DNA from: a virus
Taxonomy: Duplodnaviria > Heunggongvirae > Uroviricota > Caudoviricetes
DNA: 64,000 bases
Reading direction: 5' to 3' (one strand)
IMG/VR virus record: IMGVR_UViG_3300005836_000011
Location: 1-64,000 of that record
Each line of letters starts with the position of its first letter. Position 1 is the first letter of the stretch. Positions 9,297-53,815 of the stretch are shown piece by piece. The position numbers and the translations under genes were made by a program. Under the pieces are notes generated by a model, which saw only the letters and a program-made list of their open reading frames with translations, was not told the origin of the DNA and did not search any database.

Positions 9297-9796
9297 CCGC
9301 CCCGGCTAAGCACACGGTTCAACTTCTCGCGGAGTTGGAGAAGGTAGGAGCTGTCATTGACAACGGCCTCTTCCTTCCTGCCGACCTTGAGTACGACAGC
9401 TATGAGAGCGTAGGGGCAATGCTCGGCGCGCTGCATCAGGCAACAGGATTCCTGATCGGCGATTACCTCCTATATGGAGAACACACCTACGGAGAACGCT
9501 ACGCACAAGCCGCGCTGCTCTTGGGACTGTCTCCACAAACATGCGCGAACTACCAGTCGATCGCTAAACGCGTTCCTCCTGGTCGTCGCAAGGACGGGGT
9601 GAGCTTCTCTGTTCATGGCGAGGTTGCATCCTTGCCACCCGAGCTTCAGGAACACTGGCTGACCGTCGCTGCAAACGAGGGTCTCACAAAGCAAGAGATA
9701 CGAGACCGATTGCGTCCACCCAAGGAACTATCAGCAGCCGATAAAACCGTAACCTGCCCCCGCTGTGGATGTTCATGGTGGCCTGATGCAAAATAG
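9221..9796 (+). CDS. hypothetical protein, possibly DNA-binding
   Basis: GTG 9221 with RBS aggagga at -6. HTH-like segment LTKQEIRDRL and a C-terminal CPRCGC. Confidence 0.5.
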   Translation: MGSTTQELQAYAREGGDREEAQDRVTAPAKHTVQLLAELEKVGAVIDNGLFLPADLEYDSYESVGAMLGALHQATGFLIGDYLLYGEHTYGERYAQAALLLGLSPQTCANYQSIAKRVPPGRRKDGVSFSVHGEVASLPPELQEHWLTVAANEGLTKQEIRDRLRPPKELSAADKTVTCPRCGCSWWPDAK

Positions 9797-10211
9797 TGAA
9801 GCTCTATGTGTCTGCGGTTGTGGTCAACCCGTAAGCCGTGCTCTTCAGAACTTTCCCGAACGCGGCTATAAGAAAGGCGACTACTTTCGTTATGCCAGGG
9901 GTCATCGCGGCAAGCACCCTGCATGGAACAAGGGACATTGGAGCGAAGTAGTAAATGAGTTCTCAGCGAGAGTTCGGGCGCGTGGAATCAAGGGACCTGG
10001 TCTATGTGAACTAGTCCGCATTGGCGGATGCTCCCCAAGGCTCCACGTTCATCACATAGACGGAAATCCATTTAACAACGATCCAGCCAATCTTATGAGA
10101 CTTTGCATGTCCCATCATGCGCTTGTGGAGAGAGATCGCATTGACTTAGACAACCCAGTCATGCCACCATTCACTATCTCCAGTGGGAAACGGAGATACA
10201 GATATGGCTAA
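9786..10211 (+). CDS. HNH endonuclease
   Basis: CVCGCG Zn cluster and an HNH core LHVHHIDGNPFNNDPANLMRLCMSHHALV. Confidence 0.65.
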   Translation: MQNSEALCVCGCGQPVSRALQNFPERGYKKGDYFRYARGHRGKHPAWNKGHWSEVVNEFSARVRARGIKGPGLCELVRIGGCSPRLHVHHIDGNPFNNDPANLMRLCMSHHALVERDRIDLDNPVMPPFTISSGKRRYRYG

Positions 10212-10229: not shown

Positions 10230-10547
10230 ATGAAAGGAGTTCGAATGACCGCATATCCCTATGCAGAGCGTATTGATCCAACGATCCGAAGTCAGATAGC
10301 TGTTCGTCTGGAGGCGGCTAACAGCGATTGGGAGTCTGGACGCGCGACTTCTCCTGATACCCTAGATTTCGTGAACTTCGCAGATCAGATCCTCAGCAAG
10401 CGGCTTGGTGACAAGTACATCGGAAGCACCGTCGAGGGACGCCAACTCATTGCGGATGCGATGTGGGAGATCCAATGCGAGGGGGGAAGATTGCAGGAGT
10501 GGGGCGACATGGCCGATTACCTCGTGGATCAGCTCGTCGCTGAATAA
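10230..10547 (+). CDS. hypothetical protein
   Basis: ORF track. Confidence 0.45.
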   Translation: MKGVRMTAYPYAERIDPTIRSQIAVRLEAANSDWESGRATSPDTLDFVNFADQILSKRLGDKYIGSTVEGRQLIADAMWEIQCEGGRLQEWGDMADYLVDQLVAE

Positions 10548-10548
10548 A

Positions 10549-10746
10549 ATGATTATCTGCAAGCTCTGTGGAAATCCGATCCATCAGCCACGACAGGCGT
10601 GGAAGGAACAGATTGGATGGGTTAGTCCACATGGTGCAAAGTCGATGACGGGGGCTTGGCAGACAGGAGAGTTAGCTCATCCGGAATGCATTAACCTCTT
10701 GCGCGCAAAAGTTCCGATCGAGCAGGAGTCCTTCGATGTGCTGTAA
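10549..10746 (+). CDS. small Cys-containing protein
   Basis: ATG 10549 just after the previous stop. MIICKLCGNPIHQ...HPECINLLRAK. Confidence 0.4.
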   Translation: MIICKLCGNPIHQPRQAWKEQIGWVSPHGAKSMTGAWQTGELAHPECINLLRAKVPIEQESFDVL

Positions 10747-10752
10747 GGATCA

Positions 10753-12354
10753 ATGCGCGTAGGCAGTCTCTTCTCCGGTTGCATGGGCTTCGATCTGGGT
10801 CTTGAAGCGGCCGGCTTTGAGATCGCATGGGCTTGTGAATCCGATGCGGCCTGCCGTCGAGTAATCGCACGACATCGTCCTGACCTTCCCGTATACGAAG
10901 ATGTACGTATGTTCTCCGAAGGCGAGAGCATTAAAGAGGTTCCCTATGTTGATGTAATCGCCGGAGGATTTCCATGCCAGGATCTATCGCAAGCAGGCTC
11001 AGGGGCAGGTCTCGCAGGTGAGCGCTCGGGACTCTGGTTTTCCATGCGAGATGCCATTCGCGCGCTTCAACCCGGATACGTCCTCATCGAAAACGTCCCC
11101 GGACTTGCAACCAAGATGGGTTCCCGCCCAGGAGAATCTGCTCTCGGAACAGTCATCGCTGGTCTGGCCGAAGCAGGGTATGTGGGATCTTGGATTCGCC
11201 TACGAGCTTCCGAAGTCGGCGCCCCCCACAAACGAGAGCGAATCTTCCTTCTTGCAGCTAGAGCCGACATTGACTCCGCGCGAACTGACTCCAGAGACAG
11301 CTTGGGCAGCCGGTCTGTTCGAGGGCGAAGGGTACTTCTGCAATCCAGAACGAAAAAAGCCACGACCTCGGATCATGGCTGGTCTGATCAGTACGGACGA
11401 AGACACGGTGCGCAAGTTCCACAAGATCGTCAGGATGGGGACAGTGGGGGGGCCATTCCCACAACAAGGGATAGGGAAAAAGCCTTATTGGAGATGGAAC
11501 GTATTTGGCCCTGTTGCTGTATCGGACCTGCTGGAGATGCTTTGGCTTGGCCTCGGGGAGCGAAGGCGTGCTACTGCTTCGGTGGTACTCGACCTTGTGA
11601 TTGCTGGCCGTCAGCAACATCCGCTCAAGGGAGACGTTCTCTTGCTGCCAACACCGAATGCATACGAATCGACACCCGCGCAGGATTATGTGGACGAGGT
11701 ACGCAAGAACCTAGACGATCCGCACAAACGCCTGTATCTACCGGGCCGGAAATGGCACGCACAGAGGACGCTATCGAGGATAGCCCCGCTTCTGCCGACA
11801 CCGGGAGCAAACGACTCCACGGGTCCGGAGAACGAGACGAGGAAGAAGCGACAGAAGAAAGGCACGGGGGGACCGGCTCTACGCGATCTGACGCATCTCC
11901 TTCCGACACCGACAGCGGGAGACGCGAACTCGTCGGGGTCGAGGAAGCTTCCGAGTTCGAAAGCGCACGCGGGGACGTCACTGACGGATGCGATCGTGAG
12001 AGAAAAGCTGCTTCCGACACCGACAGTGAACGACGCGAGAAACACCGGAGGCCCATCACAGCACACGAGAAACTCACTTCCGCTGGTCGAGATAGCGAGG
12101 GACGTGAGTGGGGCGTCTATGGACCAGCAATCAAGCGATGGACAGATGCCTTCGGGAGAGAACCCCCAAGACCAACTGATGATCGAGGGAGATTGAACCC
12201 CGCCTTTACGGAATGGATGATGGGATTTCCCGACGGATGGACGGAGGGCGAGAGCAGAACGCAAAGGCTTAAAATGCTTGGTAATGCTGTCGTCGTACAA
12301 GTGGGTGAGGTGGTTGGTCATATGCTCATGGAGGGAGCGATGCGTGGAGAGTGA
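10753..12354 (+). CDS. DNA (cytosine-5)-methyltransferase, Dcm-like, interrupted by a frame-shifted LAGLIDADG-like domain (possible pseudogene or recoded gene)
   Basis: Frame +1 carries motif I (LFSGCMGFDLGL), IV (GFPCQDLSQAG), ENV (LIENVPGL) and VIII (HKRERIFLLAAR), ending at about 11262. Frame +2 (11267-12100) carries a LAGLIDADG-like block and four LLPTP-x-A-x-D TRD repeats. Frame +1 resumes at about 12100 with motifs IX/X (WGVYGPAIKRW...RLNPAFTEWMMGFPDGW, GNAVV). Confidence 0.7.
   Translation: MRVGSLFSGCMGFDLGLEAAGFEIAWACESDAACRRVIARHRPDLPVYEDVRMFSEGESIKEVPYVDVIAGGFPCQDLSQAGSGAGLAGERSGLWFSMRDAIRALQPGYVLIENVPGLATKMGSRPGESALGTVIAGLAEAGYVGSWIRLRASEVGAPHKRERIFLLAARADIDSARTDSRDSLGSRSVRGRRVLLQSRTKKATTSDHGWSDQYGRRHGAQVPQDRQDGDSGGAIPTTRDREKALLEMERIWPCCCIGPAGDALAWPRGAKACYCFGGTRPCDCWPSATSAQGRRSLAANTECIRIDTRAGLCGRGTQEPRRSAQTPVSTGPEMARTEDAIEDSPASADTGSKRLHGSGERDEEEATEERHGGTGSTRSDASPSDTDSGRRELVGVEEASEFESARGDVTDGCDRERKAASDTDSERREKHRRPITAHEKLTSAGRDSEGREWGVYGPAIKRWTDAFGREPPRPTDDRGRLNPAFTEWMMGFPDGWTEGESRTQRLKMLGNAVVVQVGEVVGHMLMEGAMRGE
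11252..11600 (+). mobile_element. LAGLIDADG homing-endonuclease-like domain embedded in the methyltransferase gene, in frame +2
   Basis: TPRELTPETAWAAGLFEGEGYF...DEDTVRKFHKIVRMGTV...YWRWNVFGPVAVSDLLEMLWLGLGERRR is colinear with the free-standing genes at 17226 and 36670 (revcomp). It begins 5 nt after methyltransferase motif VIII, with no ATG (possible TTG at 11270). Confidence 0.6.
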
Positions 12355-12595
12355 ATACGAGATCAGAACCGCTGCCTATGAGGCGGTTGCAAACGGAGAG
12401 GCGGAGGTCGTTGGAGAAGAGGACGGCGAACCCGTGTTCAAGCTCACAGAAGCAGGTCGCACGCGTGCAGAAGAAATCATCGACGCTGCTATTAGACGCT
12501 GGGGTCACGAAGCTCCGGAGCAGCTAGCCAACGCGCTTGGTGTCTCTATCGAGATCGGCGAGGAACTGGTGGCGCTGAGAGAAGGTACAATCTAG
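12344..12595 (+). CDS. hypothetical protein (HTH-like C-terminus)
   Basis: GTG 12344 overlaps the methyltransferase stop. Same frame as ORF track 12278-12595. Confidence 0.4.
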   Translation: MESEYEIRTAAYEAVANGEAEVVGEEDGEPVFKLTEAGRTRAEEIIDAAIRRWGHEAPEQLANALGVSIEIGEELVALREGTI

Positions 12596-12597
12596 TC

Positions 12598-12927
12598 ATG
12601 ACCGCTATGTGTGAGCGTTGCGGTATGGATGCGCCAGCTCCTAATGACGACTGGTGTAAGGATTGCATCTTGGAGGTGGAGATAATCTTGGCCGAAATGG
12701 AGGAACGCCAAGAGCCAGACTTTCGCTGGCGAGCGCTCGGTAATAACGGGAAGTACACGTTCGAGGATCTTGAGATGCGAGTCGCTGAATACGAGGATGA
12801 ATACGGACTACCCTCTGATGCGCTCCTCGAGATGCATCGGGATGACCGCGCTCCCGATGATCTTACGAGCTTCGATCGTCATGTATGGCTAAGCCTCTAT
12901 CGAGAGATGCTGGAGCATAAGCAATGA
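12598..12927 (+). CDS. hypothetical protein with N-terminal Zn-ribbon (CERCG...CKDC)
   Basis: ORF track. Confidence 0.45.
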   Translation: MTAMCERCGMDAPAPNDDWCKDCILEVEIILAEMEERQEPDFRWRALGNNGKYTFEDLEMRVAEYEDEYGLPSDALLEMHRDDRAPDDLTSFDRHVWLSLYREMLEHKQ

Positions 12928-17225: not shown

Positions 17226-17615
17226 ATGATACATCAGACCGATAGAGAATTACTAGCATGGGCAGCTGGTCTGTTTGAAGGCGAGGGGCATATTAAGCAT
17301 CGCCGTTATAATAGAAGCAGCCGACCGGGTGAAACTGCAATGCAGCGTGGCCTGACGCTCACAATGGCTGACGAGGATGTCGTGCGACGCTTCCATGAAA
17401 TTGTTGGTGTTGGGAGCGTTAATTTCTCTAAACGTGCGAGGCCACACTGGAGTGACCAATGGAGATGGGACTGTACAAGCTGGCCAGATGTAAGAACTCT
17501 TCTCCATCAATTTCTACCCTACCTTGGTAAGCGAAGAACTCTTAAGGCTCAGGAATTGTTGGCTGACCCAGCTCGCACATATACTAAGCGCAAAGTTACA
17601 ACGCGCGAAAGATGA
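17226..17615 (+). CDS. LAGLIDADG-family homing endonuclease (single-motif type), free-standing
   Basis: RELLAWAAGLFEGEGHI matches a LAGLIDADG motif. Plus-strand gene sits between minus-strand lysis genes. Confidence 0.7.
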   Translation: MIHQTDRELLAWAAGLFEGEGHIKHRRYNRSSRPGETAMQRGLTLTMADEDVVRRFHEIVGVGSVNFSKRARPHWSDQWRWDCTSWPDVRTLLHQFLPYLGKRRTLKAQELLADPARTYTKRKVTTRER

Positions 17616-24720: not shown

Positions 24721-27700
24721 TTAGGTAGCCATCCCCCTTGCGGCCTGGCGTTGCTCATTTGTGCGCGCCCCAGGATGCTTGGTCGCACCACTTAGACTCT
24801 TAAGCACTTCTAGCATCTGCTTATTGATATGGATGAGCATAGACATCTGTCCTGCCGTGCTTCCATGTGGGCTAGACGTGGCTTGCGCTTTTTGTAGTTT
24901 CCCGCCAGGACCATAATCTCCACCACCATGGGCCATTCCAGATCCTACGCCTGGAATCGAAATTGCAGTTCCTCCGATGATTCCACCACCACCGCCGCCA
25001 GTCGCAATAGGAACACCACCAGCGCCACCAACTCCAGTAGGATTCGGGCTAGTCGGGAAGAGATTCCCAAGCAGGCTGGCTGTGAATCCCTGCTGTGCCT
25101 GTAGGAACTCGAACATGAGCTTGGACATGGCGTCGTTCTTCTTGGCCGTTGTCCCCTTTAGGTCATTGATTGCCTTGATCTCATCCTGTTCCGCTGCCTT
25201 GACGCGCAACCATTCCAGGCTGTTGCGACCATACTGCTTGCGCACTCGCTCAAGCTCCTTCTGAATAACTTGGAGCTTGGCACGATGGGCCTTAAGCAGA
25301 GCCGCGACATTCGCATTTCTGTCTGTGACGTGCGCTTCCGCGATCTGGATACGCAGGTCTGCCCTCTCTAGCGCCCTGTCTACGAGCGCCTGAGCCATCG
25401 CTTCCTGATTCTTTTTCTGCTCTGCAGCAAGACGCTTGATCTCTGTGGTCGTGGTGAAAATCAGATCGTTGATCTGTTTCATCGCTGCGCTGATCACAGA
25501 CTTCGCTGCACCGACGGCTTCAAGGCGCTTTCGAATGACATCTCTTGCGTGCTTTAGATAAACGATCCAGGCTCTATTAGTCTTGAGATCATCCCCGAGT
25601 TGTTCGTTTAGACCGGCGCTCGTGATCCGACGCTGCAGAATCGTCGCCTTCCTTCCCTGGAGGATCTGATCGACGATCTTCTGTCCTTCTTCGTTGTGCT
25701 TCGTCTGGGCATCCTTAATCTTCTGAGCAGCATCCTTGTTGGCTGAAGTGATTTCTCCCGAAAGACGTTCAACCTCAGCATTGGCTGCATTCAGTTCGTC
25801 TCTCGCATCTTCAAATGCTTTCTGTTGCGCGTCTCCTGTGAAGAAGGTTCCACCCTTCGTCGCAGTATTGATTTTGTTAAATGCTGCCTGCGCCTTCGCT
25901 TGGCTTTTCTTTGCGACTGAGAGCAATTCCGGAGTAGACGCTCCCTGCGCCATGGCAGTAGCTATGGCGTCGCTCACATTGAAATTGGCCTTGAATCCCT
26001 CGGAGGCACCCTTTCCAAGAGCCGCTCCGATATTGGTCCCCATATGCTCAAGCCATATGGTGTTGTCGTCAATGACCTTTTTGATATTTGGCTTTAGCTC
26101 GGCAAGCAACGCCTTACGAAGAGCGGGACCCAACCCAGAGAATTTCAGCAGACCTTTGATGAACTCCTCTCGCGCTGCAACTCCAGTAATTCCCATCTCC
26201 CTGATCAAGTTGGCGAGCGCAACTTTCAGATTGGGTGCTTTGAAAATCGCCTGAATAAGGATAGGCTTTACATTTACGTTTCGCGTCTGTAGGATTAGCC
26301 CACGGATAAGAGCTTGCTTTCGTCCGAGAGATTGCTGTTCAGCAGAATCCGACGCAATATTTTTCTGCGACAATTTGCCAATTGCGTCCGCAGTATTCTT
26401 TAGAAGCAATACCTTTCGTACTTCTTCTCCGAATGATCCCTTGTTCAGCTTAGAGCGAATCTGTTCAGTAATAAGCAATCTCTGAACCGCGACGACTTCA
26501 TCGAATCTGGCCTTCTTGATTGCGTCACTAGCAGCTGCCTGTTTTTCCTGCGTCGCCTGAAGATCTTTAATTGCCTTGTTGTAATCCTGTGTCGCAAACG
26601 TGACATCCTGCGTGGCAACGAGAACATCAAGTTCCTGTTGTCTGCGTTCGTTACTACCACGAGGAGCGTTGGATTGGGCGAGCGCTACTCGGGCACGCTG
26701 CTGATTGAGAACAGCCTGCGTGAGTCCAGTCTGAAGTTGCTGGACACTTCTCTTTCCCGTATCCAGAGAAGTAACAGCATCATTTAGCTCTCCATAAGCC
26801 TTGGCGAGTCGCTCGGTCGCTCCTTGCAGGCTGGCAGTTGCCTTTTCAGTCTGGCTTTGGCGAGTGAGCAGGTAGACCAAGCCACCAGCAGCTACGGCCG
26901 CAGCAATGGCATAGAAATTGAAACTCTTTGCGCCACTAGCGAGTAGGGTTCTAATACCAGCAACGCTCCGTATAGATACAGCGTTATTTGCTTCGAAAAA
27001 CTTTTGCGCTAGTGCCAATGACTTATAACCATCTGCAGCTCTCTTCAGAACTCCTGGGAGTATTCTGTATGCTGCAACAGCTGCAAGAATATTTCCAACA
27101 CCTATTCCGGTAGCGAGTCTCGCTAGGGCATTTACAGCTGGTAGGGCTACGGCCGATATGCCCTTCATAGCCGAACCGAGAAGGCTAAAGGTTTGGCCGA
27201 GCGCTGTCAGCGACTGATTAAGCGACAGCGCAACCTGATCAGATTGCGAGAGCGCGGTAACCCCTGCTGCCACTCCTCGCACCATGGTTGCGAGGGCAGG
27301 ACCAACATGACCAGCGGCAGTCGTGCCGACCGTTTCCAACGTGGACTGCAGGGCATCCATTGCTCCGTGAAGACCCTTTGTGCGTGCCGCAGCTAGCGCA
27401 GCTGCGCTTCCCTCTTCGCGTAGGGATTTGCGCAGAGCAAGGAAACTAGAGATCGACTGTCGGCCAAGGATAGTGACTGCTCGGAAGGCATCCTGTCCTC
27501 CGATCAGAGCGATAGTGGCATCACGTTGAGCTGGTCCAAGCTTCTCAGCGGCGTTTGCAATCTGAATGAAGACGTCGGGGCGAAGTTGTCCCTGAGCATC
27601 TCGTACTTGGATTCCGAGTTGCGCGAAAGCCTCCGCTGCCTTCTTACTCGGATTGACGAGTCGAATAAGCGCGGTACGCAATGACGTACCGGCGTCAGCC

Positions 27701-29415
27701 CCACGCAATCCATTTTTCGCGAGAATCGTAAGGAAGGTGGCGGTGTCTTGGAAACTCAGTCCTACCTGACGTCCGGCTGCAGCAGCCTGCTGGAACGCTG
27801 TTCCGATATCTGCAATCGAACCCTGGGCTAAGTTGGCTGCGTTAGCAAACGTATCTGCGACAGCCACGGCTTCTCTGCCCTGTAGGCCGAACGCATTGAG
27901 CGCATTAGCTACAAGCTGGGTTGCAGCTGCATTGTCGATTGCAGCCGCAGTTGCGAGTTCCAAGACACCACGTGCGGCCGACATAGAATCTGCAACCGAG
28001 AGACCTGCTTTCGCAAGCTCAACCATCGCGCCAGCAGCATCAGACGCAGATACAGAAGGCAGGGTGAGATCGGCTCCGAGTTTTCGGGCCTCCTCCCTAA
28101 CAGCCGCCATCTGAGAAGCGGTGGCAGAAGTCGTTGCCCGGAAGACATCCAGATTTGTCTCGAGGTCGGCGAACGATTTAACGGCCTTCGCAAAAACTGT
28201 GATCGCGGCAGCTCCGACGAGGAACGAGCGGCTCGCTGCCAGCGTCGCGCCGCGAATGCCTGCGAGAGAGAGAATAGAAGCCTGGCCACCGCGTGAGAAC
28301 TGTTCCGAAGAGCGCGCCTGTTTTGCAGACTCTCTCGTTTGCGACTTAATTGCCGCAACCTGATCCTTGGATGCCTGAACTTGCTGCTTCGCGAAGTCCA
28401 CGTTGCGCTTCGCGATGATTTTGAAGTTTTCACTCTGGCTCTTCTCTGCCTGCGTGAGAGCCTTGGCGGCATCCGAGGCAGCGTGGGAGCGTATTCTCAG
28501 AACGTCTTGTGCTCCAGCCAGATCCTTCGTGCTCTTCCCGAGTTTGTCTGATGCAGCCTGCGCTTCTTTCAGCCCAGCAAATGACCGACCGAGAGAAGTA
28601 AGTCCGGTGGCCCTCGCACTCGTAACCGTTCGGGGAAGTCCTGGAGCGACTGCGGGCGTTTGCGACGCAGCTCGCGCCTTCTCGGTCTCAAGCGCCCTAA
28701 CAGCTGCTATGGCCGCTTCTTGATCTGCTTTGATTTTGACAAATACCGCTCTTGTCGTTTTCGTGAGCGATGTCTCCAAGCCTTTCTCGGAGAGCGCATA
28801 TGCCTTGTTGATTGTGGCTAGGCGTGATTTAGCTTGAAGCGCAGGAGTTGATTTTGTGAGTGCCTCCGACTCAGCATTGGCTGCCAACTTAGTCGCCTGA
28901 GCGCTGAACTTCTCGGCACGAGCTTGTTGCTGGGCGCGAGTTTCACGCTGCTTACTAGCGGCATCTCCACGCTTTCTCGCTTGTGTGACTTTTTCTTCTG
29001 CTACCTCGACGTCACCAAGCAACACAGCTCCGCGAGCAAGACCGGCATTAATGCGCTCTTGATTTGCCGAGACATTCCCCGCAATTGGACCTAGGGGTGC
29101 AGCAGCGGATCCAGTCCTTCCCGCAACCGATACTGGTGCTTGTACAACATTGAGAAGCTGGCGCCGAGACGGCGATTCGATAACCGTCTTGATAATGATC
29201 GGCTTGACTCTGCTCTGCGCCTGAAGTACTGCTGCGTTGACTTGTCGCCTCAGATCTCCGACGAAGTTAGAGGTGAGCGCAGGAGCTATTTTTACTCTGT
29301 AAGGCTTCTCATTGACCTTCGCCATGATCGCCTTGAGTTGTTTCTCAAGGTCGGTCTTAAAGCCCGTTAGGCTCGGAGTAATACGAACGGTTGCTTCAGC
29401 GAAATGATCGCTCAT
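24721..29415 (-). CDS. tape measure protein (1564 aa)
   Basis: Length, Ala/Gln/Lys-rich coiled-coil composition and Gly-rich C-terminal stretches. Preceded by a G/G-T chaperone pair. Confidence 0.85.
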   Translation of the reverse strand: MSDHFAEATVRITPSLTGFKTDLEKQLKAIMAKVNEKPYRVKIAPALTSNFVGDLRRQVNAAVLQAQSRVKPIIIKTVIESPSRRQLLNVVQAPVSVAGRTGSAAAPLGPIAGNVSANQERINAGLARGAVLLGDVEVAEEKVTQARKRGDAASKQRETRAQQQARAEKFSAQATKLAANAESEALTKSTPALQAKSRLATINKAYALSEKGLETSLTKTTRAVFVKIKADQEAAIAAVRALETEKARAASQTPAVAPGLPRTVTSARATGLTSLGRSFAGLKEAQAASDKLGKSTKDLAGAQDVLRIRSHAASDAAKALTQAEKSQSENFKIIAKRNVDFAKQQVQASKDQVAAIKSQTRESAKQARSSEQFSRGGQASILSLAGIRGATLAASRSFLVGAAAITVFAKAVKSFADLETNLDVFRATTSATASQMAAVREEARKLGADLTLPSVSASDAAGAMVELAKAGLSVADSMSAARGVLELATAAAIDNAAATQLVANALNAFGLQGREAVAVADTFANAANLAQGSIADIGTAFQQAAAAGRQVGLSFQDTATFLTILAKNGLRGADAGTSLRTALIRLVNPSKKAAEAFAQLGIQVRDAQGQLRPDVFIQIANAAEKLGPAQRDATIALIGGQDAFRAVTILGRQSISSFLALRKSLREEGSAAALAAARTKGLHGAMDALQSTLETVGTTAAGHVGPALATMVRGVAAGVTALSQSDQVALSLNQSLTALGQTFSLLGSAMKGISAVALPAVNALARLATGIGVGNILAAVAAYRILPGVLKRAADGYKSLALAQKFFEANNAVSIRSVAGIRTLLASGAKSFNFYAIAAAVAAGGLVYLLTRQSQTEKATASLQGATERLAKAYGELNDAVTSLDTGKRSVQQLQTGLTQAVLNQQRARVALAQSNAPRGSNERRQQELDVLVATQDVTFATQDYNKAIKDLQATQEKQAAASDAIKKARFDEVVAVQRLLITEQIRSKLNKGSFGEEVRKVLLLKNTADAIGKLSQKNIASDSAEQQSLGRKQALIRGLILQTRNVNVKPILIQAIFKAPNLKVALANLIREMGITGVAAREEFIKGLLKFSGLGPALRKALLAELKPNIKKVIDDNTIWLEHMGTNIGAALGKGASEGFKANFNVSDAIATAMAQGASTPELLSVAKKSQAKAQAAFNKINTATKGGTFFTGDAQQKAFEDARDELNAANAEVERLSGEITSANKDAAQKIKDAQTKHNEEGQKIVDQILQGRKATILQRRITSAGLNEQLGDDLKTNRAWIVYLKHARDVIRKRLEAVGAAKSVISAAMKQINDLIFTTTTEIKRLAAEQKKNQEAMAQALVDRALERADLRIQIAEAHVTDRNANVAALLKAHRAKLQVIQKELERVRKQYGRNSLEWLRVKAAEQDEIKAINDLKGTTAKKNDAMSKLMFEFLQAQQGFTASLLGNLFPTSPNPTGVGGAGGVPIATGGGGGGIIGGTAISIPGVGSGMAHGGGDYGPGGKLQKAQATSSPHGSTAGQMSMLIHINKQMLEVLKSLSGATKHPGARTNEQRQAARGMAT

Positions 29416-29416
29416 G

Positions 29417-29428
29417 CTAGGTTCCTAG
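29417..29428 (+). promoter_or_regulatory. CTAGGTTCCTAG 12-mer copy
   Basis: Exact copy 1 nt upstream of the tape measure ATG (29415-29413). Provides the TAG stop of the G-T extension. Confidence 0.5.
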
Positions 29429-36130: not shown

Positions 36131-36673
36131 TCATTGCCACTCCTCCACTGGGCATGTGATCCCTGAGAGAATACTCTCTCGATCAGCCTCGTATCCATTC
36201 GCGTACTTTCCATTATGCCACTCGATGAGGATCTGCGAGAATCTATCCATGAGGCCGTTCTCGATCAGATGAGGAAGGAGCACATATTCGGCTCCCTCGA
36301 TGTCGACCTTGAGCACGATCCGAGCCTCGGGCAGAGTCCTGACCCAGGCGGAGAAATCGAAGGCCTTGGTCCGTTCTTTCTCGTCGAAGTCGACATGAGT
36401 ACAGTTGCCTTGCAGACAGAGGCCGACCTCAATGTCATCCGTCCAAGCAGCCCTCCGAGCAGTGATGACGGTGGTTCCGAAGACACTGCCGACGGCATCC
36501 GGCAAGCCTGGGTGAGGATCAAAGCCAAAGAGGACGGTCGGTGAGAAGCGCTTGATCAGTGTTTGGATTGAGTCCTCTAGCCGATTTCCTCGCTGATAAC
36601 TACAGCAACCGAGGTCGATGACAATGTCGGTCTCGAGCGACGAGACTGAGTGAACGGCGAGCGCGTTACTCAT
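36131..36673 (-). CDS. FkbM-family methyltransferase
   Basis: IVIDLGCCSY...KVDIEGAEYVLL is diagnostic of the FkbM family. Confidence 0.6.
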   Translation of the reverse strand: MSNALAVHSVSSLETDIVIDLGCCSYQRGNRLEDSIQTLIKRFSPTVLFGFDPHPGLPDAVGSVFGTTVITARRAAWTDDIEVGLCLQGNCTHVDFDEKERTKAFDFSAWVRTLPEARIVLKVDIEGAEYVLLPHLIENGLMDRFSQILIEWHNGKYANGYEADRESILSGITCPVEEWQ

Positions 36674-37260
36674 TGCATCATCTTGTCGTGCTCTGGCAAG
36701 TGACTCGGAGGACCCTGTGGCCCTTTCTTCTTCGCGCGGTGCCGAGCTTGGTACTCACGCATCTTCTCACGGCGGCGGATCTGCTGTTCGGTGAGTCCTT
36801 CGGTGCTGTATCGCGAGTGTCGGCCACAGGTGCATCCTGGGGAGCAGGGCTTCGTGCCTCCGAGTCCCTGGGGTGAAGGCTCTGGACGTTCGTCGAACTT
36901 CTCTCTCGCTATCAGATATTGCTCGCGCTTCGGATCGCAGAGCCAGGGCCAGAGAAGATCAAAAAGAGTATCCACAGCCTTCCCGGAGACCTGATAACTC
37001 CACTGAGGATTCTGGGAGAGCAGATTCTTTGTCGGGATGTATGGACCGTAGATCTTGCCGACCCCCACCGCGCGAACGAAGCGATCAAGAGGTTCTCGCC
37101 TGTTCTGATTCACGCTGGCTCGCAAGTAGATATCGCTGGCTACGCGCTTCCTGCCGTCGTTCTTTCCGTAGCACCCACAGGAGCCTTCTCCGTCCCAGAA
37201 TCCCGCGGCCCAAGCAAGCTCCTCACGATGATATGCCGCCTGTGCGCGTTCATCACCCAC
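36670..37260 (-). CDS. LAGLIDADG-family homing endonuclease, free-standing paralog
   Basis: REELAWAAGFWDGEGSC, LDRFVRAVGVGKIY and QWSYQVSGKAVDTLFDLLWPWL are colinear with the 17226 gene. Confidence 0.65.
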   Translation of the reverse strand: MGDERAQAAYHREELAWAAGFWDGEGSCGCYGKNDGRKRVASDIYLRASVNQNRREPLDRFVRAVGVGKIYGPYIPTKNLLSQNPQWSYQVSGKAVDTLFDLLWPWLCDPKREQYLIAREKFDERPEPSPQGLGGTKPCSPGCTCGRHSRYSTEGLTEQQIRRREKMREYQARHRAKKKGPQGPPSHLPEHDKMMQ

Positions 37261-39953: not shown

Positions 39954-40385
39954 TCATCCCGTGAAACTCACCACATTGGAGTCGGGGCGCGTGTAGTCGC
40001 CCGCCCCGCTCGGCTGGTAGACCCATGCTGAGCAGGCGACCCCAGGTCGCGCGAGGGCGGTGAGGAACGTCGGCACCGTCTGCCCGAAGTAGGGTGAGAG
40101 TGGGTCGGTGACGATCAAGCTGGTGACCCAGCCCGTGTCGCCCACGGTGGAGAATCCCTCGCAGCGCACGACGACCTGCGCGAGCCACCAGATATTCTGA
40201 CGCCGGTTTGACCGCTGCACCTCGACGGTCACGGTGTCGTAGGGCGAATCCGTCGCCACGCTTGCCACACGAACGGTGAACCCGTTGTCGTTGCCCTTCG
40301 CGGTCGCGCCCGCACTCAGGACGAGCCCCGCTACGAGCACGGCGGCCAGCGACGCAATCCTGCTCATCACTGCCTCCTTAGACAT
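39954..40385 (-). CDS. secreted protein (signal peptide)
   Basis: [23 protein letters not shown] looks like a signal peptide. Confidence 0.45.
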
Positions 40386-43300
40386 TCTTCCTCGTATAGT
40401 TGATCATCACGCCAATCAGCATCGCATCTGCCGCAAGCGTGTCAGAGCCGTCGGCAGGTACGCGCTTCACACGAATGAACACCGTTTCGCTGGCTGCGGG
40501 AGTTCCGCCAACCGTGATCGCGGGAGTGGATGCGCTTTGGAACTGGAGCAACGTCGTACCCGCGGTCGGTGTATCCGCGATCTGCTGCGCTGTGCCATAG
40601 GCGGAGGCCGTATCTGTGCCATCGCCCAGAGCGACCGCCTCCAACGCCCAGACAACCCCGCTCGTACTCGTGCCCACGCGCGTCCAGTCAAACTGCGCGG
40701 TGATCGTTCCACCATCCCAGTCCGACGGCATCCGCAGAGTTGCACAAGCGAACTCCTGTGTCGTCTGGTCGAAGTCGAGCGTGTAGTAGTTGTGGCTGCT
40801 CGTTCCAGCGACATTCTTGTTCTGAGCAGCGCCGTTGGTCGTCGCTGGCACCATGCCCGAAGCGGTGAGATAGAGCTGCCCCGCAGGTGCCGGGCCACGC
40901 TGCCCATCAAGGCCGTGGATGCCCTCTGGCCCGGTCGCACCTGTCGCGCCGGCTCCTGTCGCTCCCGAGACTCCCGTTGCCCCGGTAGCACCCGAGATGC
41001 CGGTCGCGCCTGTTGCGCCAGAGATACCCGTCGGCCCGGTTGCTCCCCTGTCGCCAGACGGCCCCTCCAGACCATCGAGTCCCTGTGCTCCTGTTGCACC
41101 ACTGATTCCGGTTGCGCCAGTTGCGCCCGATATGCCGGTCGGCCCAGTTGCGCCCGAGACACCCGTGGCCCCCGTCGCCCCACTGACGCCGGTGGCGCCC
41201 GTTGCTCCTGAGACACCCCTATCTCCCGACGCACCCTCCAGGCCGTCGAGGCCCTGCGGCCCAGTGGCTCCGCTGATGCCAGTAGCTCCAGTTGCGCCAG
41301 ATACGCCGGTAGCCCCGGTAGCACCAGAAACGCCCGTGGCGCCAGTGGCCCCCGACACCCCGGTGGCGCCCGTGGCGCCAGAGATGCCGGTTGCACCTGT
41401 CGCTCCGCTGACGCCCGTTGCCCCAGTCGTTCCCCGATCTCCCGAGCGACCTTCGAGACCGTCGAGACCCTGTGGGCCGGTTGCTCCACTGATTCCCGTA
41501 GCGCCGGTAGCTCCGCTCACTCCGGTAGCGCCAGTAGCGCCTGAAACTCCGGTTGCCCCAGTAGCGCCCGAAACACCGGTTGCACCAGTGGCGCCCGAGA
41601 CTCCGGTGGCTCCAGTAGCCCCGGAGACACCAGTGGCGCCAGTGGCACCCGACACCCCAGTTGCTCCCGTCGCGCCAGACACACCGGTCGTACCAGGCGA
41701 TCCATCGAGTCCGTCAATCCCCTGCGGGCCCGTCGCTCCCGAGACGCCCGTGGCACCAGTCGCACCGGATACACCAGTTGCTCCCGTCGCGCCAGACACA
41801 CCTGTGGCTCCAGTCGCGCCAGAGACCCCGGTCGCGCCCGTTGCGCCAGAAACGCCTGTCGCTCCAGTCGCGCCAGAAACGCCCGTCGCCCCCGTCACAC
41901 CCTTGTCGCCGGAAGCTCCCTCGAGACCATCGAGACCCTGGGGACCCGTCGCACCGGATACGCCTGTCGCGCCAGTAGCGCCGGAGACCCCAGTAGCGCC
42001 GGTTGCTCCACTGACTCCGGTAGCACCAGTGGCACCGGATATGCCTGTTGCACCCGTTGCTCCAGAGACGCCCGTCGCTCCAGTAGCACCGGATACACCA
42101 GTGGCCCCCGTAGCGCCCGAGATGCCTGTGGCACCTGTGACTCCCCTATCTCCTGATGCTCCCTCCAGTCCATCCAGCCCCTGCGATCCAGTAGCACCAC
42201 TTATTCCTGTGGCACCAGTTGCCCCGGATATTCCGGTTGCGCCAGTGGCTCCGCTGATGCCTGTTGCGCCTGTCGCGCCAGAGATACCCGTTGCTCCGGT
42301 GGCTCCTGAAATACCTGTGGCACCCGTAGCTCCACTAACTCCTGTGGCACCCGTTGCTCCTGAAACACCCGTAGCTCCCGTAGCCCCTGTGACGCCCTTG
42401 TCTCCCGATGGCCCCTCCAGCCCATCGAGGCCCTGCGCGCCGGTTGCGCCGGATATGCCAGTCGCGCCCGTTGCTCCTGATATTCCCGTGGCACCAGTTG
42501 CACCAGATACCCCGGTTGCCCCCGTAGCTCCGGAGACACCCGTGGCACCAGTAGCACCGGAAACACCGGTTGCCCCAGTGGCACCACTGATTCCTGTGGC
42601 ACCAGTGGCCCCTGAAACTCCAGTCGCTCCTGTGACTCCCTTGTCTCCAGAGGCCCCTTCTAGGCCATCGAGACCCTGTGGGCCGGTAGCGCCCGACACA
42701 CCAGTTGCACCCGTAGCCCCACTGATTCCCGTGGCTCCTGTCGCCCCGGAAACTCCGGTAGCGCCTGTGGCTCCCGAAACCCCGGTTGCGCCAGTTGCTC
42801 CGGATACCCCCGTAGCACCAGTTGCGCCCGATACTCCGGTCGGGCCTGCCGCTCCGGATATCCCAGCACTTCCATCAAGCCCATCCAACCCTTGCGGCCC
42901 AGTAGCCCCCGACACTCCAGTAGATCCGGTCGCTCCCGAAACCCCGGTTGCGCCTGTTGCCCCAGAAACTCCGGTTGCTCCGGTAGCGCCGGATACTCCA
43001 GTCGCACCCGTTGCTCCTGAAACTCCCGTAGCGCCTGTTGCACCCGATACGCCAGTTGCTCCAGTTGCTCCGCTGACTCCTGTAGCCCCCGTTGCTCCGC
43101 TGGCACCAGTTTGGCCCTGAGAACCATCAAGCCCAGGGATGGCCTCTGGACCAGTCGCACCAGAAATCCCTGTTGCTCCGGTAGCTCCAGAGATACCTGT
43201 TGCGCCGGTAGCACCGCTAACTCCGGTTGCTCCAGTTGCACCCGAAACTCCGGTTGCTCCAGTGGCGCCGCTTATACCTGTCGCTCCGGTAGCCCCACTT

Positions 43301-45180
43301 ACTCCGGTTGCCCCCGTGACCCCCTTATCACCCGAAGCGCCTTCCAGGCCATCGAGTCCTTGCGGGCCGGTTGCTCCACTAATCCCAGTCGCTCCAGTCG
43401 CACCTGATACACCCGTAGCTCCCGTAGCGCCCGAAACACCAGTAGCTCCAGTTGCACCGGATACGCCAGTCGCGCCAGTAGCGCCGCTGACACCTGTTGC
43501 TCCTGTAGCGCCGGAGACCCCGGTAGCGCCCGTGGCTCCTGAAATGCCTGTCGCGCCAGTAGCGCCTGAGATACCTGTCGGCCCCTGCCCTCCATCAATG
43601 CCATCGAGGCCAGCCGGCCCAGTTGCCCCACTGATTCCGGTTGCTCCGGTGTTTCCTCCCCCAGGACCAGTCTGGCCCGTGGGACCCGTGGCACCCGTGG
43701 CGCCTGACCCGGTGGCACCGATGCCTCCGTCAACGCCATCCAGTCCGGCGGGGCCAGTCGCTCCACTAACGCCCGTGGAGCCTGTCGCTCCCGAAACCCC
43801 CGTCGCCCCGGTGGCTCCGGAAATCCCAGTAGCTCCAGTTACACCCTTGTCGCCCGAAGGTCCATCGAGGCCATCGAGTCCTTGAGGACCAGTGGCTCCC
43901 GAAACCCCGGTAGACCCGGTAGCCCCAGAAATCCCTGTGGCTCCAGTGGCTCCGGAAATGCCCGTGGCGCCTGTCGCGCCCGACACTCCGGTCGCACCTG
44001 TTGCACCCGAGACACCTGTGGCACCTGTAGCTCCGGAGACTCCTGATCCGGTCGCGCCCGTCCCTCCAACAGCGCCATCAATTCCGTCAGTCCCCTGTGG
44101 GCCGGTCGCACCGCTTGATCCTGTGGCGCCAGATACACCAGTCGCTCCTGTTGCTCCGGAAACTCCCGTAGCGCCCGTCGCTCCGCTGACACCAGTTGCC
44201 CCAGCACCCGTAGCGCCAGTCGCTCCCGAGCTCCCGGTAGCACCCGAGACACCTGTCGCGCCTGTCGCGCCCGTGACGCCAGCGCCTGTCGGCCCAGTCG
44301 GGCCGTCTGCGCCAGATGCGCCATCGGATCCTGTGGCACCCGTATTGCCCTGCGCTCCCGCCGAGATCGGCGTCAGCACCGACGACGTGTTCACCGAACC
44401 CATGTAGTACGTCGTGAGGTCGGTAGAGCCGCCGCCCGAGTCCTTGACCGCGTAGAGCTTGACTACAAGCAGGTCGTCTACGAGAAGCGCTATTGGAGCC
44501 GCTTGCGAGTACGTCCAGATTGCAGACTGAACCAGCGTGTTATCGATCTCTCCCGAGTCCGACGTAAAGAGCAGCGTCTCGCCACCGCCAGCCGCGCGCT
44601 TGTAGACCTCGGCGCGCAGGTAGACAACGCCGATTGCGCTGTCCACGTCGGCGCTAATCGAGAAGCGCCAGAGGCCGACGGGAATCTCCTCGATGGCCGG
44701 TACGCCAACGATGGTCGAGAACTCCTCGATGAGAACCGGGCTCGTTCCGGTCGTGACGCCGGCGATGATCGTGTCCTCGGCATCTGCCGATGGAAACTTC
44801 CGCGCCTGTCCATACCCGCCTATCGTCGGGTGAGCCGTCGTCCATAGCCAGAATCTCGCCCCAGCCTCACCTGCTGGCCCAGTCGGACCGGTTGCGCCCG
44901 TCGCGCCAGTGACTCCGTCCGTTCCGATCGTGCCGGAAGGGCCAGTAGCGCCAGTCGCACCCGAAGGGCCACCAGCAGGGCCCGTGGCGCCCGTTGCTCC
45001 AGTCTGTCCTGCGCCCGATCCTCCGGCAGGAGGATCAACGTACTCGTGAATCCAGCCACCAGGGAAGCCAGGCTCGCCCAGTACCGCCGGGCGGGTCTGG
45101 AGCATCTTCTGGTCGCCGATGGCCGAGTCATCGACGTCAAGAAGCCTGCGAAGGAAACGTATTACGCGAACAGCGGCCAT
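40378..45180 (-). CDS. giant collagen-like triple-helix repeat protein (1600 aa), putative virion fibre
   Basis: About 1150 residues of uninterrupted Gly-X-Y ([13 protein letters not shown]..., punctuated by [19 protein letters not shown]). N-terminal 250-aa and C-terminal 230-aa non-collagen domains. Confidence 0.85.
40880..44350. repeat. nested tandem repeats (9/27-nt and about 300-nt units) encoding the Gly-X-Y region
   Basis: Repeats are visible at both nucleotide and protein level. The antisense strand carries spurious Pro/Ala/Val ORFs. Confidence 0.8.
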
Positions 45181-45260
45181 AGTGACCTCCGCAGCTCGGC
45201 ACCGCCCTCACTCACGAGGGCAGTGCCGTGGCCTAGCGGTAAACCTCCGAAGAGTTCAAA

Positions 45261-46879: not shown

Positions 46880-48619
46880 TTAGACCAGAGCCGGGAACTC
46901 GCCCGACGGTGTCACAGTGGAGGAGACCCACAACGCGGCCTGTGCTGGAGCGATGCGGATAACGTTCTCGAACTGCTCGCCGAAGATCTGGAAGTCGTTC
47001 GTCGAGTTGAGTGTCGAGTCACGGACGATCCCAAGATCAAGCGTTCCACCATCGAGATGGAGGAAGGCACCTTCGGGATAGAACGCGAACTGAATGACGC
47101 TTGGGAAGGCATCCACAGCGCCAGCACCCTGAGTGCCGAAGCCCTGCGATGTCCCACCAGCGACGTCGTCCAGGTAGTACGCGGCCGAGATGCCGTAGTT
47201 GTCAAGAATCGCAGCCAGCTGAGCCTGCGTCGAGAAACGAGCCTCGGCATCCTGCGTCTTGATCGTGTCCGAAACGAGCAGCTCAGGAACCCACGCGGGC
47301 ATAAGAACGCGGAAACGAGCGTCGCTCATGCGCAGGCGGTAACGCACTCCAGAGCGGAGTCGGACGATGACATCAACCAGGTCGGATAGGGCGCCAAGCA
47401 CCTGTGCCGACGTGACGTTGACAGACTGTGCCTTGATCTGAGACAGCAGATAGGACTCTGCTGTCCTCGCAAGAGCAGCCATTGTCAGGTCATTCTCGTG
47501 CGCGATCTTCTCAGGCCACGCGCGAGCATTGAGGTTTCCGTACTCGCGACAATGCGCTAGCACGGTCACCGTTGCGTCTCGATAGTCGGGACACGAGAGA
47601 TCCTGACAGGACTTCGTGTACGTCCCCGAGACATCCTCGTCGGCCGTAATGGTGGAGATGGCCTCGCTGATGTCTCCGATGATCGTCGCCTCGGGAACCG
47701 AGACGCCCCCGCGATCCGCCTGGAAGGACGGAAGCGCGTCGCGGACCGGTCGGGCGGTCACTGCGAAGTTCGGCATCGAATAGAATGGCTCGAGAGGAGC
47801 ACAGAGTCCACCGGAAGCGGTGAGCACCTTGTTCCCCTTCATGCCTGTGATGCCATCCGGAATGACGGCCTGGATTTTCTTTGCGTTTACATCTAGCTCA
47901 CCCGGCATGAGCCTCCGCTCGTCGGGATACGGGAAGTTCGCCTGCGCGATGAAGAAGCGCTGCTCGATCCCGTTCTCGCTCTTTGCGGGTGGGCCTAGCC
48001 GGCGGGCGACCGTACGCATCGCCTCGGCGAGCGACAGCCTGTCCAACGGCTGACCGCCCCTGATTCCATCAAGACCAGCGGCGGCAGTCAGAACTGCGGC
48101 CGGCTCGCTCGGGAGTCTGTTCGCGGATGGAGCAGGCGGTCGCCGAAGCTTGCGCTCTGCACGGTTTTGCACGACGTCGGCCGATGCGACAAGAACAGCC
48201 GTCTCTTCCTCGACCTCGTCCTTGCTCTCTACCTCGTCTTCGACCTCAGCGTCTTCTGTGGAGGCCTCAACAATTTCGGCCTCGTCCTCAGTTTTTGCCT
48301 CTTCGTCGATTTCATAGGCAGCCTCTTCGACCTCCTTGCTCTCCATGTGCTGCTTACGCCGCTCTGCAAGTGCTTCCTTGCGAGCCGCATACTCCTGCTC
48401 CTGCTCAACCCGACTGGCCTGCTCAGCAACGATCTGCTCGATCTGCTCGACGCCAGTCTCGAGGGCCATGAGAACCTCTTCAGGACTCATACCCTTCGTA
48501 AATTCCTCATCCTCAGACTCAATTAGCTCTGCGGTGATCTGATGCTCTTTTAGAAGATCAGCAAGCTCCTCGTCAGACAGTGAGGAGAAATCCTCTGGGA
48601 GCTCTGGGAAAAGATCCAT
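46880..48619 (-). CDS. major capsid protein (HK97-fold) with fused acidic scaffold-like N-terminal domain
   Basis: The N-terminal 170 aa are Glu/Asp-rich coiled-coil (scaffold/delta-like). The C-terminal 400 aa are of capsid-protein size. Sits after portal and protease. RBS aggag at -9. Confidence 0.65.
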   Translation of the reverse strand: MDLFPELPEDFSSLSDEELADLLKEHQITAELIESEDEEFTKGMSPEEVLMALETGVEQIEQIVAEQASRVEQEQEYAARKEALAERRKQHMESKEVEEAAYEIDEEAKTEDEAEIVEASTEDAEVEDEVESKDEVEEETAVLVASADVVQNRAERKLRRPPAPSANRLPSEPAAVLTAAAGLDGIRGGQPLDRLSLAEAMRTVARRLGPPAKSENGIEQRFFIAQANFPYPDERRLMPGELDVNAKKIQAVIPDGITGMKGNKVLTASGGLCAPLEPFYSMPNFAVTARPVRDALPSFQADRGGVSVPEATIIGDISEAISTITADEDVSGTYTKSCQDLSCPDYRDATVTVLAHCREYGNLNARAWPEKIAHENDLTMAALARTAESYLLSQIKAQSVNVTSAQVLGALSDLVDVIVRLRSGVRYRLRMSDARFRVLMPAWVPELLVSDTIKTQDAEARFSTQAQLAAILDNYGISAAYYLDDVAGGTSQGFGTQGAGAVDAFPSVIQFAFYPEGAFLHLDGGTLDLGIVRDSTLNSTNDFQIFGEQFENVIRIAPAQAALWVSSTVTPSGEFPALV

Positions 48620-48742
48620 GTTGGTAACTCCTGGTTTTTGAATGACTTAACCAAGGGAGTCCCCTGGACCCCTTTCCGAGCGCGCGACCTTCGTGCGCTA
48701 CTGAAAGCTAGTGTGAACTACCGCGCGGACATTGGGTAAGTT

Positions 48743-53663: not shown

Positions 53664-53815
53664 TGTGACTAACCTGTCTTTTCCGGAGGTGGTGCCTTCG
53701 GAGCCTTAGGAACCCTGGGCAGTCTCTTACCCTTTTTACATCCGCAGGGGATCTTAATCGCCTCCTTATTTGCTCAGCGCTGAACGAAAGAGTAGGGACT
53801 AGTTCGGTCGTTACG

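Follow-up and report, generated by a model that had tools for sequence, protein, structure and literature searches.

The 64,000 nucleotides (nt) analysed in this study, referred to as the window, are positions 1 to 64,000 of the IMG/VR record IMGVR_UViG_3300005836_000011 and represent the genome of a tailed phage (Caudoviricetes). Between positions 10753 and 12354 they encode a C5 DNA methyltransferase whose parts are found in two overlapping reading frames. A previous sequence-only reading described this gene as split by an embedded LAGLIDADG homing-endonuclease-like domain. The split exists on the level of homology only, as frame +1 itself does not contain a single stop codon across 10753-12354 and forms one unbroken open reading frame (ORF) of 533 codons, here designated alpha. 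A second ORF of 392 codons, designated beta, is located in frame +2 wholly within alpha. The locus comprises the following features:

10753..12354, plus strand: ORF alpha, frame +1, a single ORF of 533 codons; presumed catalytic subunit of the C5 DNA methyltransferase
10753..11262, plus strand: N-terminal half of alpha with motifs I-VIII (FSGCMG, GGFPCQD, ENV, GAPHKRERIF)
11018..12196, plus strand: ORF beta, frame +2, 392 codons, wholly within alpha; proposed DNA-recognition subunit
11051..11250, plus strand: dual-coding stretch, motifs VI-VIII of alpha and N-terminal segment of beta (WVPAQENLLSE..WPKQGMWDLGFAYELP)
11251..11640, plus strand: LAGLIDADG insertion of 390 nt (a multiple of three), domain at 11279-11620; in frame in beta, stop-free in alpha
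11263..12102, plus strand: linker (spacer) of alpha, which is beta read out of frame; stop-free, not conserved as protein
11642..12095, plus strand: four LLPTP modules of beta starting at 11642, 11789, 11897 and 12008; presumed target-recognition modules
12096..12196, plus strand: C-terminal tail of beta (..SGASMDQQSSDGQMPSGENPQDQLMIEGD, followed by the stop), the other-frame reading of alpha just upstream of motif IX
12103..12354, plus strand: C-terminal part of alpha with the WGVYGPAIKRW segment, motif IX (RLNPAFTEWMMGFPDGW) and motif X (LKMLGNAVV)

Reading frames and protein features of the locus

Alpha matched the Pfam family PF00145 in two stretches with an expectation value (E) of 9e-47. 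In agreement with the sequence-only reading, the first methyltransferase motifs occupy frame +1 from 10753 to about 11262, and motifs IX and X are found in the same frame again from about 12103. The first 170 residues yielded E=1e-38 over the profile positions 1-162 of 324, and their motifs follow the order I-VIII of C5 methyltransferases, including the catalytic PCQ and ENV. The last 83 residues consist of the WGxYxPAIxRW segment, motif IX, and motif X. For this C-terminal part tblastn matches in the alpha frame were obtained in all loci. In the AlphaFold2 model of alpha, which was based on a 92-sequence alignment, the predicted local distance difference test (pLDDT) score was above 90 for residues 1-180 and 450-533 and below 50 for residues 190-438. 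Foldseek aligned the N-terminal half (about 174 residues) to M.HhaI and M.HaeIII with E of about 1e-13 and a root-mean-square deviation of 2.3 A.

The spacer between these two parts comprises about 280 residues of low complexity which did not match anything. In the window 17% of its residues are hydrophobic and 18% acidic, and the corresponding ranges across loci are 7-18% and 13-26%. A test of spacer hydrophobicity for selection beyond the avoidance of stops resulted in a mean z of -0.9. Acidic residues were enriched in 17 out of 17 loci, which may be a by-product of avoiding T at the third codon positions of beta. No recognition domain was found between motifs VIII and IX in alpha's own chain, where residues 171-450 are without protein homologues and were modelled with pLDDT below 50. 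These residues evolve in the phase of the other frame, and modules of the recognition type are situated in frame +2. Hence, alpha is devoid of its own target-recognition domain because its spacer is the beta gene read in the alpha frame.

Beta starts with the GTG at 11018 or possibly with the ATG at 11051 and overlaps motifs V-VIII of alpha by about 245 nt upstream of the apparent frame switch. The sequence-only reading was right in placing the LAGLIDADG block, which begins AWAAGLFEGEGYF... and extends over 11279-11620, in frame +2 and in letting it run in frame into the four LLPTP modules. Its start 5 nt behind the catalytic motifs did not hold, as the ORF reaches upstream to 11018. Database searches with beta resulted in 363 homologues at E<=1e-3, mostly "hypothetical proteins" of 250-350 amino acids (aa) without a Pfam domain, and in a match to phrog_1008 "DNA methyltransferase" (E=2e-14). 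LLPTP modules also occur between motifs VIII and IX of the single-frame homologues P0049, P0055, and P0088. The C-terminal tail of beta ends within the first codons of motif IX, upstream of motif X, with a TGA stop made from the alpha codons for Leu-Asn (TTG AAC). It is apparently unconstrained, and its substitution phase follows alpha. The AlphaFold2 model of beta was weak overall (predicted template modelling score 0.31) and was not used for fold searches. In the N-terminal segment it contains a beta-hairpin with pLDDT 83-92.

The position of the beta start, 14-16 codons before 'PFA(R/Y)F', is common to the window (GTG 11018), L008 (GTG), L009 (ATG), and L011 (ATG). A GAGGAG is found 9 nt upstream of the ATG in L009. 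In the clade L018-L025 beta starts with an ATG ('MTSSPEDSPA') preceded by the Shine-Dalgarno-like GAAGGAG.

The N-terminal motifs of the "hypothetical proteins" P0002, P0003, P0021, and P0078, which correspond to window positions 10958-11262 in frame +2, result from reading methyltransferase motifs in the +1 frame: GFPCQD(L/V)S gives 'SPAKTS/SPARTS', ENVPGL gives 'SSSKTS', and LAEAGY..W..GAPH gives 'WPxxGM..AYxLP..APP'. Thus, the conservation of these motifs is partly imposed by the other frame. An origin of the beta N-terminal segment from a recent frame-shifted duplication of motifs VII-VIII was rejected, since P0049, in which it was tested, showed no DNA self-similarity and an unrelated +1 reading.

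Conservation of the layout and selection on the two frames

The same layout was found in every homologous locus retrieved, about 26 independent loci. The nested loci were 4 viral and 18 metagenomic ones retrieved with an alignment of the closest homologues plus L002, L003, L027, L028, and L032. In each of them the N-terminal half of the methyltransferase is encoded in a frame f, the LLPTP region in f+1, and the C-terminal motifs in f again, and frame f is open from motif I (or the contig edge) to motif X. L008, L002, L027, and L028, the closest relatives with 75-80% protein identity to the window, have the same frames without the 390-nt insert, and the identical f / f+1 / f layout was present in about 20 more distant loci without a LAGLIDADG match. 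The LAGLIDADG domain, to which the sequence-only reading had attributed the split, is therefore not the cause of the frame pattern. In the clade L018-L025 and in the Mycobacterium phage SG4 the return to frame f occurs later, so that motif IX (..NPTWVEWLMGFPLGWTD) belongs to the nested ORF and only motif X to the outer one. Motif IX of L018-L025 evolves in the phase of the nested ORF. Megablast of the region against phage genomes and a scan of genome contigs gave no match, and a single-protein scan of viral contigs gave no relatives. An alignment of 14 sequences was too diverse to seed a scan.

The number of stop codons expected in the alpha frame was derived from synonymous-codon shuffles of the frame +2 ORF, in which the protein and the codon usage were kept (20,000 shuffles for the window). 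Across beta, frame +1 of the window contains no stop compared to 13.1 expected, and zero stops occurred in 0 out of 20,000 shuffles. For the central 279 codons 9.0 stops were expected (P=5e-5) and for the LAGLIDADG insert 4.5 (P=0.0024), and again none was present. As background, long ORFs of the 64-kb window contain about 3.4 stops per 100 codons when read in the frame beginning at their third codon position. None of the nested loci has an alpha-frame stop across beta, with 4-14 expected in each of them. The P values range from about 0.1 in L023, the shortest and truncated locus, to <2e-4 and are mostly below 0.01. In contrast, all controls carried stops at the rate expected. These were the two-ORF enzymes of the Arthrobacter phage PrincessTrina (gp81/gp82, with motifs IX and X in the frame of the recognition region; 12 stops, 11-13 expected) and of the Mycobacterium phage Phlei (gp63; 5 stops, 7.5 expected) as well as the contiguous single-frame homologue P0049 at locus L026 (2 stops, 5.0 expected) and a contiguous single-frame enzyme of a Ralstonia phage (8 stops, 7.9 expected). 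The alpha frame is stop-free far beyond chance, and chance is excluded as an explanation.

Cultured phages share this arrangement. Gp64 of SG4 (NC_023699; gp64 at 41908-42666), a protein of 252 aa annotated as "DNA methyltransferase", is made up of motifs I-VIII and motif X with a short spacer between them. Within gp64, a +1-frame ORF that lacks annotation (L030:2068-2739) reads ..DSPARTS..FWHTPTTND..NPVWIEWLMGFPPNWTD, i.e. a recognition module followed by motif IX, and is homologous to beta of L024 (E=5e-16). Across this nested ORF the gp64 frame has no stop compared to 4.8 expected (P=0.0014). The SG4-type nested ORF recurs in 49 phage records beneath genes annotated as methyltransferases, one of which is Che9d gp80. 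For Llama, OfUltron, and Ochi17 the matching sequence is broken into two segments, and two methyltransferase genes are annotated there. Databases contain many alpha-type ORFs with an acidic spacer of low complexity. A search gave 2229 matches at E<=1e-10, and these include NCBI entries that belong to a Streptomyces genome and to a metagenome-assembled genome of Hyphomicrobiaceae.

Substitutions counted by codon phase in the window aligned to L008 and L002 revealed which frame is under selection where. From 10753 to 11050 they peak at the third positions of alpha (0.60-0.82 over the whole stretch, 0.60-0.64 for 10753-11017), indicating selection on alpha only. Between 11051 and 11250 all three codon phases are low (total divergence 0.12; alpha third positions 0.17-0.24), which points to selection on both frames. 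From 11640 to 12095 the peak is at the third positions of beta (0.49), and beta second positions are at 0.06-0.09. Hence, only beta is selected in this region and alpha is merely open. The peak is at alpha third positions again from 12096 to 12354 (0.47-0.72), indicating selection on alpha only. A drop of the synonymous rate of alpha in motifs VI-VIII compared to motifs I-IV was observed in most pairs in two clades (Fisher p from 1e-2 to 3e-7), although it was not significant in 3 of the closest-related pairs. Given this reduced rate, beta behaves like coding sequence in its upstream part, rather than like a run-on.

These data bear on the idea, also put forward in the sequence-only reading, that a contiguous methyltransferase gene was broken by invasion of a homing endonuclease or by indel errors in the assembly. 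A pseudogene or artefact would account for a central frame +1 region without homology to anything, and homing-endonuclease genes are abundant in this phage (9765-10211, 17226-17615, 36670-37260). Nevertheless, the layout recurs in about 26 loci from independent samples and in finished genomes of cultured phages, every piece is under purifying selection in its own frame with substitutions biased to third positions, relatives without the endonuclease insert share the frames, and the depletion of stops is far beyond chance. We therefore regard a broken gene as extremely improbable.

On the minus strand, ORFs of 120, 150, and 211 codons are located opposite the methyltransferase locus at 11258-12321. 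Probably they arise as a by-product of the purine-rich sequence with few stops that two overlapping sense frames impose.

The LAGLIDADG insert and the genomic context

Alignment to relatives located the insertion proposed in the sequence-only reading at 11251-11640. These 390 nt are flanked by TCTTGC(A/T)GC, are absent from L008, L002, L027, and L028, and separate the N-terminal segment of beta from the first LLPTP module, a site where motif VIII ends in alpha. Five copies, i.e. the embedded one, two paralogues in the window, and those in P0012 and P0050, were combined into a profile, which matched solely LAGLIDADG endonucleases in the PDB. I-HjeMI was the best match (1.7e-6), and I-AniI, I-MsoI, and I-CvuI were also found, the last one matching across the whole inserted domain (positions 9-114). 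The domain is of the single-motif, I-CreI-like type and carries the motif AAGLFEGEG with the acidic residue retained (GLFEGEG). All copies matched phrog_5046, the embedded one with E=3e-12. In Pfam no match was found for the embedded copy at E<=10, and the LAGLIDADG_1 scores of the paralogues (19 and 15.5 bits) were below the cut-off of 23.1. The match over the whole length, the conserved acidic motif residue, and the free-standing paralogues in the same genome liken the insert to I-CreI, I-MsoI, and I-CvuI. In contrast to these, it is internal to a host protein without an intein or intron and has to stay stop-free in a second frame.

An intein was rejected, as it had been in the sequence-only reading. 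The insert is bounded by ..SS|FLQLEP.. and ..KGDVL|LLPTP.. without splicing residues, and no Pfam intein or Hint family matched at E<=1. A group I or group II intron was also rejected, since no Rfam match was found at E<=1 in 10400-12700 and the insert is a continuous in-frame part of beta.

The same insertion site is occupied in three lineages, namely those of the window, L003, and L032. L032 belongs to a PrincessTrina-like lineage which is also nested (0 stops, 6.3 expected). The shared site suggests that the insert arose by homing into a highly conserved dual-coding target. L002 carries an inserted free-standing HNH_3 endonuclease gene (L002:3961-4446) where the recognition region meets motif IX, with 'EWGIYAPA' partially duplicated at its flanks. 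The alpha frame through this gene has no stop in 161 codons compared to 3.6 expected (P=0.009).

At least four homing-endonuclease-type elements are present in the 64-kb window: the embedded copy, an HNH_3 gene, and the two free-standing LAGLIDADG paralogues which the sequence-only reading had already noticed. The methyltransferase is found among small early genes on the plus strand, directly downstream of the HNH_3 gene, and the structural genes are located on the minus strand. The closest match of the terminase, with 35% identity, is to Roseobacter phages, and there is no close cultured relative. Features outside the locus are:

9765..10211, plus strand: HNH_3 endonuclease gene directly preceding the methyltransferase; Pfam E=9.5e-6
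17226..17615, plus strand: free-standing LAGLIDADG paralogue, 129 aa; tblastn E=2e-11, phrog_5046 E=3e-21, LAGLIDADG_1 E=0.003, below threshold
24721-29424, minus strand: tape measure protein
36670..37260, minus strand: free-standing LAGLIDADG paralogue, 196 aa; tblastn E=2e-7, phrog_5046 E=2e-12
46880-48646, minus strand: major head protein
51882-53705, minus strand: portal
57394-59022, minus strand: terminase

A further ORF of 1609 codons on the minus strand (40378-45207) consists of collagen triple-helix repeats (Pfam E=2.5e-158) and probably encodes a fibre protein. It yields very long shadow ORFs, e.g. one of 748 codons at 40874-43120 on the opposite strand, which are most likely compositional by-products.

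Proposed interpretation as nested subunit genes

We consider it likely that the locus encodes an obligate alpha/beta heterodimer from nested genes which resembles M.EcoHK31I, with the recognition domain in the nested subunit and the LAGLIDADG domain as a secondary insertion. Among the options listed in the sequence-only reading, a fusion of endonuclease and target-recognition domain accompanied by a split methyltransferase came closest, although the split consists of nested genes and pre-dates the endonuclease insertion. Alpha would be translated straight through, giving rise to motifs I-VIII, a disordered acidic and polar spacer of about 280 residues, and motifs IX and X, and beta would be initiated at an internal start codon inside alpha. 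The selected C-terminal motifs lie in frame +1 without a nearby start codon. Therefore, ribosomes must arrive in frame +1, and the maintenance of this open frame by selection in all loci points to straight-through translation of alpha. Alpha would supply the large catalytic domain plus, in some clades, motif IX, and beta the small recognition domain, a division which matches the known two-domain structure of C5 methyltransferases (PMC3404938). By analogy with M.EcoHK31I, the N-terminal segment of beta may dock on alpha to form the active enzyme. We infer that both ORFs are translated, that the heterodimer forms and methylates DNA, and that the LLPTP modules set its specificity. The LAGLIDADG domain would have been inserted in frame between the N-terminal segment of beta and the first LLPTP module. 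Only insertions leaving alpha open would survive, and this one would merely lengthen the alpha spacer. Since beta is modular, gain or loss of modules likewise only lengthens or shortens this spacer.

M.EcoHK31I from E. coli (YGGCCR; Lee, Kam and Shaw 1995) is a two-polypeptide C5 methyltransferase with the beta gene entirely inside the alpha gene in a different frame. Its alpha chain carries motifs I-VIII as well as X, its beta chain motif IX, the enzyme needs both of them, and their association, which the N-terminus of beta mediates, is weakened by N-terminal deletions in this chain (PMC2836561, PMC3404938). Compared by published description only, the window is similar in that beta (+2) lies wholly inside alpha (+1) and alpha contains motifs I-VIII and X. 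As to the location of motif IX in beta, the clade L018-L025 and SG4 agree with M.EcoHK31I exactly. The window differs from it in the extent of the overlap of 1179 nt, which includes a homing-endonuclease domain, and in that the gene is phage-borne with no restriction enzyme partner identified.

A second group for comparison are the two-ORF C5 methyltransferases of the M.AquI type (PMC3404938), with which the phage enzymes PrincessTrina gp81/gp82 and Phlei gp64/gp63 were grouped. These enzymes are also split after motif VIII, their first ORF is overlapped at its end by the second one in the +1 frame, and the same beta N-terminal segment (..WPxxGMxxxGxxYxLP..) is present. In contrast to the window, where alpha runs to 12354 and regains motifs IX and X, their alpha ends soon after motif VIII and their beta comprises the recognition region together with motifs IX and X in one frame. 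Moreover, their alpha frame is full of stops across beta. The contiguous LLPTP-repeat enzymes P0049, P0055, and P0088 share about 50% identity in the catalytic halves and have the same LLPTP modules, including the 'PHKRLYLPGRKWHAQRTLSR' module, but have everything in one frame with the alternative frames closed by stops. The multispecific C5 methyltransferases of the Bacillus phages SPR, phi3T, and rho11s, to which the LLPTP region can be likened, also possess tandem modular recognition domains between motifs VIII and IX with modules gained and lost. In contrast, they are single polypeptides without a nested gene.

The domain order of P0049, P0055, and P0088 is exactly that of the product expected from two programmed frameshifts, which the sequence-only reading had proposed as well. 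A +1 shift after motif VIII (about 11250-11262) followed by a -1 shift before motif IX (about 12095-12105) would result in a single-chain enzyme including the LAGLIDADG domain. A +1 slip following 'RERVFI' would carry the reading in L008 without a gap into 'LLPTP', and a +1 event at CCG-TGA-G in motif IV seems to be necessary in L002, L027, and L028. However, such a mechanism provides no reason for a frame +1 that is open over 280 codons in all of the about 26 loci, and the fusion product would require neither the constraint on beta in 11051-11250 nor the position-conserved beta starts. At the first junction there is neither a 0-frame stop nor a known +1 motif, at the second junction no conserved in-phase XXXYYYZ heptamer was found in 10 loci, and no Rfam element was detected in 10400-12700. 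In addition, the return point varies between clades. Hence, a double frameshift appears quite improbable.

It is unlikely, too, that both ORFs are real but functionally separate, with alpha being a methyltransferase that lacks recognition or is inactive and beta an independent DNA-binding, anti-restriction or endonuclease-carrying protein. Such a role of beta would be in line with the nuclease-type domain in the window, with the calling of beta-type proteins as free-standing "hypothetical proteins" in many metagenomes, and with L003, which has beta without the alpha motifs I-VI. Contrary to this view, in contiguous homologues as well as two-ORF phage enzymes the LLPTP modules are situated between motifs VIII and IX, where a recognition domain canonically lies, beta of one clade and of SG4 carries motif IX, an integral methyltransferase motif, and beta is located inside an ORF in the methyltransferase frame in every locus examined. 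At L003:2250-4076 (GCA_040384165.1, JAWVHB010003799.1) the nested ORF contains a LAGLIDADG insert and the outer frame is open from motif VIII to X, with genes called on the opposite strand upstream, where motifs I-VI would be. Either the N-terminal part is encoded elsewhere in this case or the nested protein has its own role.

Several observations weigh against the heterodimer and have to be set against the evidence for it. In L003 beta and an open alpha frame are kept although motifs I-VI are absent. The recognition domain of M.EcoHK31I was reported in alpha, with only motif IX in beta, whereas the window has the recognition modules in beta and motif IX in alpha. Beta is less strongly constrained in the overlap than across its LLPTP region, and the model confidence in the overlap could partly reflect the conservation imposed by alpha. 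The beta GTG of the window is preceded by a weak Shine-Dalgarno-like sequence (GGGGCAGG), and the first 11 codons are unconstrained. There is also a weak similarity (E=0.009) of the beta N-terminal segment to the segment following motif VIII in the contiguous homologue P0055. Finally, L002, L027, and L028, which derive from three independent samples, share an identical 7-nt insertion (CGTGAGC) in motif IV (L002:2985-3010, L027:1985-2010, L028:1935-1960; equivalent to about 10968-10975 in the window). In these loci the first 70-odd alpha codons end with 'GGFP' followed by TGA, the rest is in the +1 frame without a start codon, and the GTG of beta overlaps this stop codon (GTGA). Divergence among the three loci is still biased to third positions in all methyltransferase pieces, and these continue to evolve under purifying selection. 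The site GGGGGG-N4-CCG-TGA-G (GGGGGGCTTCCCGTGAGCC) resembles the +1 frameshift cassette of prfB. Recoding may take place here, and the site may also serve as a coupled restart. Because of this prfB-like site some probability stays on frameshifting elsewhere in the family.

Long same-strand nested genes with two functional products are rare and are discarded by annotation pipelines. To our knowledge, M.EcoHK31I has been an isolated oddity among C5 methyltransferases since 1995, and the nested arrangement has so far been described for this enzyme alone. Literature searches retrieved no description of a phage family with nested methyltransferase genes. On balance, we lean towards the view that the loci belong to a large unrecognised family in phages and prophages, in which C5 methyltransferases are obligate heterodimers from nested genes with an overlap of 0.5 to >1 kb and a modular, possibly multispecific recognition subunit is encoded in the +1 frame of the spacer. 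L002, L027, and L028 would in addition need a prfB-like recoding site doubling as coupled start.

If this holds true, the arrangement would be an architecture that is widespread among phages and prophages and stable in evolution. It would allow recognition modules and homing endonucleases to be gained and lost while the catalytic protein stays untouched. An essential subunit without annotation would be hidden in hundreds of genes annotated as "DNA methyltransferase", e.g. SG4 gp64 and Che9d gp80. The specificity subunits of these phage methyltransferases would be unannotated or recorded as "hypothetical", with N-terminal motifs that are really the other-frame reading of motifs IV-VIII, and predictions of specificity, including REBASE-style assignments, would have to look in the other frame. 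The locus also shows homing endonucleases colonising a dual-coding site. With one segment constrained in both frames, another one that is kept open, and insertions filtered for both frames, it would provide a natural system for studying the co-evolution of overlapping frames.

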